From IMG/VR virus record IMGVR_UViG_2874956758_000006, positions 1-24,511 of that record: a stretch of 24,511 bases of DNA. One strand, given 5' to 3'. The translations under genes and the position numbers were made by a program. Positions 20,475 through 21,874 of this stretch are shown here, piece by piece. The stretch comes from a virus (taxonomy: Duplodnaviria > Heunggongvirae > Uroviricota > Caudoviricetes). The notes beneath the pieces are model-generated. The model saw nothing but the letters and a program-made list of their open reading frames with translations. It had not been told where the DNA came from and searched no databases. Positions within the stretch are counted from its first letter, which is position 1; each line of letters opens with the position of its first letter.

Positions 20475-20771
20475 ATGAGCGCTTACCCGATTTTTGATCG
20501 TATTGAAGAAATGGCATGGGCTCGTCACTACCAGCAGATCGTTCGTGAAGAAAAAGAAACGGAACTGGCGGACGACCTGGAAAAAGGTCTGCCTCAGCAC
20601 CTGTTTGAATCGCTCTGCATCGACCATTTGCAACGCCACGGTGCCAATAAACAGGCAATCAGCCACGCATTTGATGATGATGTTGAGTTTCAGGAGCGCA
20701 TGGCAGAACACATCCGGTACATGGCTGAAACCATTGCCCACCACCAGGTTGATATTGATTTGGAGGACTAA
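20475..20771 (+). CDS. small acidic hypothetical protein (98 aa from ATG 20475)
   Basis: SD GGAG 9 nt upstream of the ATG; 7-nt gap to the ATPase gene. Confidence 0.4.
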
Positions 20772-20776
20772 AATCT

Positions 20777-21874
20777 ATGGCGCTTTTTCAACGAGCAATA
20801 AACACACAGGCCTATCTAAAAGCAGGAATTATGGGGTTTGCTGGCGACGGCAAAACCTACACAGCAAGCGAACTGGCTATTGGTCTGGTAATGCTTATGC
20901 GGCAACGGGGAATTGAAGCTGGTAACCGCCCGGTAATGTTTCTGGACACAGAAACAGGCTCTGACTGGGTTAAACCCCGCTTTGATGCGGAAAATATCGA
21001 ATTATTTACGGCAAAAACCCGCTCGTTTGTTGATCTGCTTGAAGCCATTAATGAAGCGGAAAGCAGCGGTTCCGTAATGATCATCGACTCCATCAGTCAC
21101 TTCTGGACCGGATTATGCGACGAGTATGCCAGACGCCGAAACCGTAAACGAGGACTGGAATTTTCAGACTGGGCGTGGCTCAAACAGGAGTTGCGACGCT
21201 TTACCGATCGATTTGTTAACAGTCAGGCGCACATTATTATGTGCGGGCGTGCAGGATATGAGTATGACTTTTTCGAAGGTGATGATGGCAAACGCCAGTT
21301 GGCAAAAACCGGTATAAAAATGAAAGCAGAAACAGAAACCGGTTATGAACCCTCCATCCTGATCCAGATGGAGAAGCAAATGAACATAGAAACCGGTCAG
21401 GTGTGGCGCACCGCCAGAATACTAAAAGATCGCTCCACCCGTATTGATGGACAGGTATTTTCAAACCCAACATTTAAAAACTTTCTTCCTCATATCGAGT
21501 TTCTTAACCTGGGAGGTGAACACCTCGGCATCGATACCTCACGGGATAACAGTGAATTATTTGCCAACGACGGTACACCGACATGGCTAAAAGAAAAGCG
21601 TGCAAAAGAAATCGCACTTGATGAAATTATCGAGTTGCTCAACAAGCACCATGGGGGCACCAGTAACGACGCCAAACGCGCAAAAGCTGATTTGCTGGAA
21701 AAAACATTCACCTCCCGCTCATGGGAAAGAATCAAAGGTATGGACTGGCCGACAATCAAAGCTGGTCGTAATGCACTATGGATTGAATTGGAAGGCGTTG
21801 AATATGCATTCCCGGATCCACAAACACAAAACGAAACGCAACAAGCAGGATACGATGAGAATATTCCGGTGTAA
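20777..21874 (+). CDS. RecA-fold ATPase, AAA_24/Sak4-like, with ~130-aa C-terminal extension
   Basis: Walker A GFAGDGKTYTA, FLDTETG motif, Walker B VMIIDSISH; SD GGAGGA upstream. Confidence 0.6.
   Translation: MALFQRAINTQAYLKAGIMGFAGDGKTYTASELAIGLVMLMRQRGIEAGNRPVMFLDTETGSDWVKPRFDAENIELFTAKTRSFVDLLEAINEAESSGSVMIIDSISHFWTGLCDEYARRRNRKRGLEFSDWAWLKQELRRFTDRFVNSQAHIIMCGRAGYEYDFFEGDDGKRQLAKTGIKMKAETETGYEPSILIQMEKQMNIETGQVWRTARILKDRSTRIDGQVFSNPTFKNFLPHIEFLNLGGEHLGIDTSRDNSELFANDGTPTWLKEKRAKEIALDEIIELLNKHHGGTSNDAKRAKADLLEKTFTSRSWERIKGMDWPTIKAGRNALWIELEGVEYAFPDPQTQNETQQAGYDENIPV

Follow-up and report, generated by a model that had tools for sequence, protein, structure and literature searches.

What does a lambdoid prophage use for recombination when the genes that follow gam in related prophages, bet and exo, have given way to a single other gene? 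The question is raised by a stretch of 24,511 nucleotides (nt; IMG/VR record IMGVR_UViG_2874956758_000006, positions 1 to 24,511, here called the window), which represents the left arm of a heavily decayed Rac/lambda-like Shigella/Escherichia coli prophage adjoining ybhA. In this prophage, gam, the gene of the lambda-type inhibitor of the host nuclease RecBCD (98 amino acids (aa), 20475-20771, + strand), is followed by a gene for a 365-aa RecA/Rad51-fold ATPase of the AAA_24 superfamily (20777-21874, + strand; PHROG 1366), a candidate recombinase. Phage recombination (Rec) modules drive phage mosaicism and are a source of recombineering tools. We consider it probable that Gam and this ATPase form a minimal, two-gene lambdoid Rec module, in which the ATPase would be a Sak4-related RecA/Rad51-fold recombinase supplying annealing or pairing.

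Gam and the adjoining ATPase

The small acidic protein encoded upstream of the ATPase had been described in an earlier note on this DNA as tightly coupled to it. Judged by homology, it is lambda Gam, a standard Rec-module component with a known job and no orphan. Its sequence matches PF06064 Gam (E 8e-56, profile positions 1-97 of 98), phrog_259 “gam-like host nuclease inhibitor” (E 5.5e-54) and the Gam chains of PDB entries 5MBV and 2UUZ (phmmer, E 2.5e-50), with 78 of 97 aligned residues (~80%) identical to 5MBV chain A, and a homologous copy is named “host-nuclease inhibitor Gam family protein” in RefSeq. Given this identity to the protein in the RecBCD-Gam cryogenic electron microscopy entry 5MBV, the prophage Gam most likely binds and inhibits RecBCD as well. 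Gam is established as a DNA mimic, which explains the acidity of the protein (isoelectric point 4.74). An alternative GTG start at 20472 would extend the open reading frame (ORF) to 99 aa. The two ORFs are co-directional and separated by only 5 nt, with a GGAGGA Shine-Dalgarno sequence placed within the last codons of gam.

Both ORFs are present, and the three motifs quoted for the ATPase in the earlier note were found and proved to be strongly conserved in an alignment of 32 homologs. In the Walker A motif or P-loop GFAGDGKTYTA (residues 20-30, 20834-20866, +), G20, F21, A22, G23, G25, K26, T27 and T29 are invariant. The same holds for F55, D57, T58, E59, T60 and G61 in FLDTETG (residues 55-61, 20939-20959, +), which comprises strand 2 and a candidate catalytic glutamate and which we take to resemble FIDAEHA of RecA and YIDTEGT of Rad51, and for D104, S105 and H108 in the Walker B motif VMIIDSISH (residues 100-108, 21074-21100, +), where a strand was modelled at residues 100-104. 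The assignment to AAA_24/Sak4-like RecA-fold ATPases was likewise confirmed. The Pfam AAA_24 match was confined to residues 14-187 (E 3.6e-13), PHROG 1366 “unknown function” was the best of the PHROG families (E 1.9e-78, residues 2-304), and a weaker match was found to phrog_124 “Sak4-like ssDNA annealing protein” (E 1.5e-8, residues 9-167). No match was obtained with the ATPase in NCBIfam, or in PDB sequence searches with the whole protein and with a profile of its C-terminal domain. An AlphaFold model based on the 32 homologs was confident (predicted local distance difference test, pLDDT, 84.5), and structure comparison scores of 12.2 for Sak4 of a Staphylococcus aureus phage (8rc5), 12.2 for KaiC C1, 12.5 for RadA/Sms and ~11 for DnaB-type helicases were reached in alignments covering only the first ~180-200 residues. 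The protein is a RecA/Rad51-fold ATPase with a Walker A and B core. Profile alignments of the family with E. coli RecA and with the DnaB-like protein of the window (hhalign) were non-significant and so shallow (effective number of sequences, Neff, ~2) that they do not discriminate.

One further loop, KTGIKMKAETETGYEPS (residues ~176-193, 21302-21355, +), is near-invariant in the family (K177, T178, K181, M182, A184, E185, E187, T188, G189, Y190, E191, P192 and S193 are invariant) yet modelled as disordered, with pLDDT below 50 at residues 176-180 and 183-189. It therefore behaves as expected of a DNA-binding loop such as L2 of RecA, and by analogy it might be an L2-like DNA-binding loop.

A clean replacement of bet-exo-ralR

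The early-left genes of the prophage are arranged in the order Rha-family regulator, YdaE-like gene, 114-aa ORF, RecE-family gene, gam, ATPase, DUF1187 and xis-int. In the related E. coli prophages listed, the slot after gam is occupied by bet and a lambda exonuclease gene, and the prophage of E. coli R1 reads RecE(N)-gam-bet-exo-ralR-DUF1187-xis-int. Homology to R1 (blastn) extends to position 20773, two bases past the gam stop, and resumes at 21902, at the start of the DUF1187 gene (21901-22113, +; PF06688, E 5e-36), the first gene past the exchanged segment. The ATPase gene has thus cleanly taken the place of bet-exo-ralR, and the swapped cassette spans 20774-21901 (+). The earlier note had placed the gene “in place of recT”; in the closest related prophages the replaced genes are instead bet-exo(-ralR).

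In a megablast search of 18100-22300 against 5426 complete genomes the flanks were found in 4532 and the full arrangement in 10 only. The ATPase gene occurs in the same 10 genomes, in one to four places each (median two) and with at least 99.7% identity, which amounts to several near-identical prophage copies within a restricted group of human isolates, among them an O121 strain. Truncated copies (260-296 aa) are frequent in Shigella and E. coli.

Upstream of gam, the RecE-family gene (18558-20497, +; ORFs 18558-20360 and 20270-20497) is frameshifted near its end, around 20270-20360, and consists of the N-terminal ~565 residues only. It lacks the nuclease domain, because only positions 1-568 of the 877 in the exodeoxyribonuclease VIII profile NF007259 are matched, with a score under the cutoff; PF06630 was located on residues 52-189. 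As this remnant is devoid of the nuclease domain, no phage nuclease is left in the window. A homologous copy is flagged in RefSeq as a pseudogene without C-terminus. E. coli R1 encodes an intact 665-aa RecE-N protein overlapping gam by 23 nt, which suggests that gam-bet-exo prophages retain the N-terminal region of RecE as a gene in its own right; in the window, the ORF at 20270-20497 overlaps gam likewise. No SSB (a protein that binds single-stranded DNA) or Rad52-type annealase was present among the window ORFs scanned (some small ORFs lay outside the scan). The statement in the earlier note that no partner is evident thus holds for these two protein types, but not for Rec-module components in general, Gam itself being one.

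Two small conserved early-left genes are located upstream of recE (17882-18534), one for a YdaE-family protein of 93 aa with a Cys-rich C-terminus and the other for the 114-aa protein, a member of PHROG 2434 (function unknown).

Distribution of the ATPase family and the case of phiES15

A total of 2035 homologs of the ATPase were found, with 33-75% identity noted for those of the same length. Full-length relatives (355-376 aa, 60-75% identity) occur in Pseudomonas, Achromobacter, Candidimonas, Roseateles/Pelomonas, Aquabacterium and Lautropia, and the family resides in prophages of Gamma- and Betaproteobacteria. In view of these numbers and of the full-length relatives, the ORF is real and no chance reading frame. 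Among 50,697 phage records, a full-length member was detected only in Cronobacter phage phiES15 (84% identity), an inducible lambdoid phage obtained by UV induction. The early-left operon of phiES15 is kil-gam-ATPase-hypothetical-Dam methylase-xis-int, and genes for Bet, Erf, RecT, Exo and SSB are lacking from its 40-kb genome, which does encode RusA. This leaves the ATPase as the sole recombinase candidate in phiES15. All 134 lambdoid (pro)phages without apparent annealase were also without RecBCD inhibitor, in the survey of Bobay et al. 2013 as it is summarised in PMC12315714, and a phage that carries Gam is thus expected to bring its own recombinase.

Gene neighbourhoods were compared for 98 loci from genomes, IMG/VR and assemblies, which formed 35 clusters at 93% identity. 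Throughout these loci the ATPase gene is co-directional within the early operon and situated a few kb upstream of the integrase. Gam is encoded directly upstream in 5 of the 35 clusters, all enterobacterial, while a canonical SSB follows directly or nearly so in three, and two more have PHROG SSB matches. An SbcC-like ATPase lies downstream in two distant clusters, NinB was found once and DNA methyltransferases several times; most remaining neighbours are unannotated small proteins. In Achromobacter prophages, the stop of the ATPase gene overlaps the start of ssb, an arrangement known for Sak4. One conserved partner gene did not emerge: the 119-aa ORFs upstream of the ATPase in two Betaproteobacterial loci turned out to be unrelated, and an all-against-all BLAST of the neighbours yielded small clusters only. 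The SbcC-like neighbours are AAA_23 proteins of 443-445 aa (phrog_77) encoded just downstream of ~40% identical ATPases in two IMG/VR loci (L095, 5137-6471; L096, 5154-6482), which points to an alternative partner of the nuclease-complex type.

The C-terminal domain and an SSB-like tip

Since AAA_24 ends at residue 187, far more than 130 residues lie beyond the ATPase core. The earlier note had pointed to a long and unusual C-terminal extension. The extension is real, conserved and helical, and was confidently modelled as a helical bundle (residues ~226-345, 21452-21811, +); unusual it is not, as every member of the family possesses this family-specific domain. An exhaustive search of 1.84 billion representatives with a profile of the domain retrieved 694 proteins, and in nearly all of the longer ones it occupies residues ~220-360 and is preceded by an AAA_24 core. 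Even in family members of 450-812 aa, AAA_24 was the only domain matched and no added domain could be recognised, the extra parts resembling low-complexity tails. Across the sequences compared, the extension is thus a trait of the whole family and no oddity of the copy in the window.

Behind this domain the protein runs out into a disordered acidic tail (21812-21871, +; pLDDT below 50 at residues 350-365) that ends in ...YDENIPV, a short linear motif resembling the tip of SSB. Endings of the form [DENQSTV][IVLMT]P-x were found in 19 of the 35 non-redundant family loci (the motif was noted in the window and in family loci L003, L008, L014, L023, L036, L038, L040, L049, L070, L071, L074, L081, L084, L086, L089, L091, L095 and L096), against an expectation of 0.39 in 35 and a maximum of 3 in 1000 composition-preserving shuffles. 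The tip is also found in distant members with 40-56% identity (...EETPF, ...DQIPW, ...EDVPY), other variants in the family being ...DEDIPQ, ...EDVPL and ...EDIPY, and the phage SSBs that adjoin three family members end in the classic SSB tip, ...DSEIPF or ...DDDIPF. It is much rarer among the most divergent representatives (5 of 95, strict count). The SSB-like tip is recurrent, not universal. Some divergent members end in ...DLF, ...SLF or ...ELF instead, recalling clamp-binding motifs.

Comparison with known recombination systems

The closest parallel is Sak4, known from HK620, PA73, phi31 and phi11 as a core-only, “mini-Rad51” annealing protein (PMC2896510, PMC5928155), with which the ATPase shares the RecA/Rad51-fold core and both Walker motifs. 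However, Sak4 was defined as core-only with fewer than 290 residues, the studied members having 219-245 aa (PMC2896510), while the ATPase exceeds this limit with its 365 aa, which include an acidic tail and, ahead of it, an additional helical domain of ~120 residues, and has a PHROG of its own, 1366. Comparison with HK620 Sak4 gave a BLASTP E of 0.09 and an hhalign probability of 0.6%, the latter between two family alignments so shallow (Neff ~2) that it speaks neither for nor against a placement with Sak4. Further, ~80% of sak4 genes adjoin ssb and Sak4 activity depends on the C-terminal tip of SSB (PMC5928155), whereas no adjacent ssb exists among the window ORFs scanned or in phiES15, and 3-5 of the 35 family loci have one.

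Much of the setting is shared with lambda Red (gam-bet-exo), such as the ~80% identical Gam, a place between kil/recE and xis-int in the same orientation, and the tight spacing of the genes. In lambda, the annealase Bet has a Rad52 fold, needs no ATP and acts together with the 5'-3' exonuclease Exo, whereas here a single ATPase of unrelated fold stands in place of both. Identity to RecA, Rad51, DMC1, UvsX and the RAD51 paralogs (XRCC2, XRCC3, RAD51C, RAD51D, RadB) is only 10-18%, and neither the C-terminal alpha/beta domain of RecA nor the N-terminal helix-hairpin-helix domain of Rad51 is present, the helical bundle of the ATPase being unrelated to them. A DnaB-type replicative helicase would be recognised by a DnaB_C match together with an N-terminal helical domain, a combination that the ATPase lacks. 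Long AAA_24 proteins of 310-400 aa from actinobacteriophages and uncultured Caudovirales, which bear the names “RecA-like DNA recombinase” or “AAA-ATPase” in BFVD/UniProt (names that, as far as we could find, come from annotation and from no functional test), align with nearly the whole model (Foldseek against BFVD, E 1e-20 to 1e-12, template modelling score 0.45-0.66) but are only 12-25% identical to it. Their shared architecture indicates that a RecA-like core with C-terminal extension recurs in phages; we know of no association of these proteins with Gam.

We assign the ATPase to neither Sak4 nor RecA because it is not a core-only protein below 290 residues, gave no significant profile similarity to HK620 Sak4 in the shallow alignments compared and lacks the accessory domains of RecA and Rad51; we describe it instead as a Sak4-like variant of greater length, which has a C-terminal domain of its own and a tip resembling that of SSB. 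A characterised full-length homolog with the same architecture, which the earlier note had named as the finding that would speak against its reading, did not turn up, and our literature search found nothing on the ATPase family, on phiES15 gp07 or on a pairing of Gam with AAA_24. A functional type consisting of an anti-RecBCD and an annealing protein, with no nuclease or SSB, is already known among lambdoid phages as the P22 type, as listed in Table 1 of PMC12315714. The novelty lies in the protein family, in the way its domains are combined and in its occurrence beside lambda Gam.

Proposed role and alternative explanations

The analysis establishes what the two proteins are, how the ATPase folds, the exchange of the cassette, the conservation of synteny and the motif in the tail; that the ATPase is active as a recombinase, and the role of its C-terminal parts, we infer. 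Gam would bind host RecBCD and block its DNA-entry site, protecting linear phage DNA ends. The 365-aa ATPase, as a phage-encoded recombinase from the RecA/Rad51 superfamily and a longer relative of the Sak4 “mini-RecA” annealases, would then anneal or pair complementary strands for recombination-dependent replication, concatemer formation and repair, the role of Bet and Exo in lambda. Canonical Sak4 needs a cognate SSB, for which the helical domain at the C-terminus and the acidic ...DENIPV tip may stand in, possibly through self-interaction or through host proteins that read the SSB tip. A bolder version, which we offer as speculative and rather doubtful, is a self-sufficient recombinase whose C-terminal domain and SSB-mimicking tip (...DENIPV, compare ...DDDIPF) would either plug into the host SSB interactome (RecJ, ExoI, RecQ, PriA and the like) or make the protein itself assemble on single-stranded DNA, so that ATPase and Gam together would replace annealase, exonuclease and SSB.

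The fold alone would also fit a DNA helicase or branch-migration motor of the DnaB, RadA/Sms or gp4-like type that would serve the replication of the phage or process intermediates of recombination, in place of an annealing or strand-pairing protein, an explanation that we regard as unlikely. The earlier note had left the choice between a variant recombination module and a role in exclusion or defence. The slot that the gene occupies in this lambdoid prophage is indeed that of recombination genes, and it is very improbable that it encodes an exclusion, defence or anti-defence ATPase merely occupying a variable early-left position. Such a role might be expected from the loss of ralR, a restriction-alleviation/toxin gene, with the segment replaced in E. 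coli R1, and from the DNA methyltransferases near the gene in several loci; moreover, lambdoid phages are known to carry accessory genes between gam and int. Phage recombinases themselves are sensed by several defence systems (PMC11846896). On the other hand, PADLOC-DB v2 contained no family matching the ATPase, Gam, RecE-N, the 114-aa ORF or DUF1187 at E ≤0.01, the gene is coupled to gam in an early-left operon expressed in lytic growth and precisely replaces bet-exo, recombination-related neighbours (SSB, SbcC-like, NinB) recur, and 60-75% identity across Gamma- and Betaproteobacteria is unlike fast-evolving defence genes.

A different objection concerns the prophage itself. As it is defective and riddled with insertion sequences (IS), the intact ATPase gene may no longer be in use, and in the extreme it would be an inert passenger, an intact ORF of no present use to phage or host. 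The four transposase ORFs, the truncated portal gene, the frameshifted recE, the joined xis-int ORF, the rarity of the gene in complete E. coli genomes and the frequent truncated copies would all agree with this. However, the ORF in the window is full length, nearly identical to the copies in the ten E. coli genomes, and retains every family-invariant residue, which makes a passenger quite improbable; besides, this explanation bears on the local copy only and not on the function of the family.

If the two-gene Rec module proposed above exists, it would affect how lambdoid phages are classified. Annealases of the Rad52 type and of the short Sak4 type are recognised in surveys of their Rec modules, and, because the original Sak4 definition excluded proteins above 290 aa, the long family (PHROG 1366) may have been counted under “no recombinase”. 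Were the family recognised, some phages that carry Gam, phiES15 among them, would count as proficient in recombination. It might also exemplify an ATPase recombinase that has an SSB-like tip of its own, encoded by a highly conserved two-gene cassette that might work in Pseudomonas, Burkholderiales and enterics. Should the self-sufficient version be true, phage recombinases would gain a new functional class, and recombineering a compact tool of two genes that is active across Gamma- and Betaproteobacteria.

Other features of the prophage and of phiES15

Elsewhere the window contains replication genes (a DnaB-type helicase and DnaD/O-like genes) and a cI/cro-like region. Excisionase and a lambda-type integrase are encoded by one 411-aa ORF (22222-23457, +) at the prophage end beside ybhA, with the Pfam domains Exc (residues 1-70), Arm-DNA-bind_1 (64-122) and Phage_integrase (256-402). 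The fusion of xis and int in one ORF at the ybhA attachment site is either natural or due to a frameshift; strain VL46 has a different xis/int pair annotated as two overlapping coding sequences.

Transposase ORFs are located at 1-906, 7757-8908 (HTH_38 and rve), 8993-9811 and 15309-16214. Those at 1-906 (+) and 15309-16214 (-) are IS3-family-type ORFs of 301 aa (HTH_21, rve and rve_3) in opposite orientation, and they look like inverted copies of one IS since their nested ORFs match in length. They bracket ~14 kb of the prophage, for which an inversion or rearrangement is possible. The late region is truncated, including the portal gene: at 3761-6447 a 539-aa ORF without Pfam match is followed by a portal ORF (Phage_portal_3) with a partial profile match, cut off by IS elements.

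In phiES15 (L100), a serine-threonine kinase and a PP2C phosphatase are encoded at 12847-14366, just past the Q antiterminator gene, and look like a moron or host-takeover pair unrelated to the Rec module.
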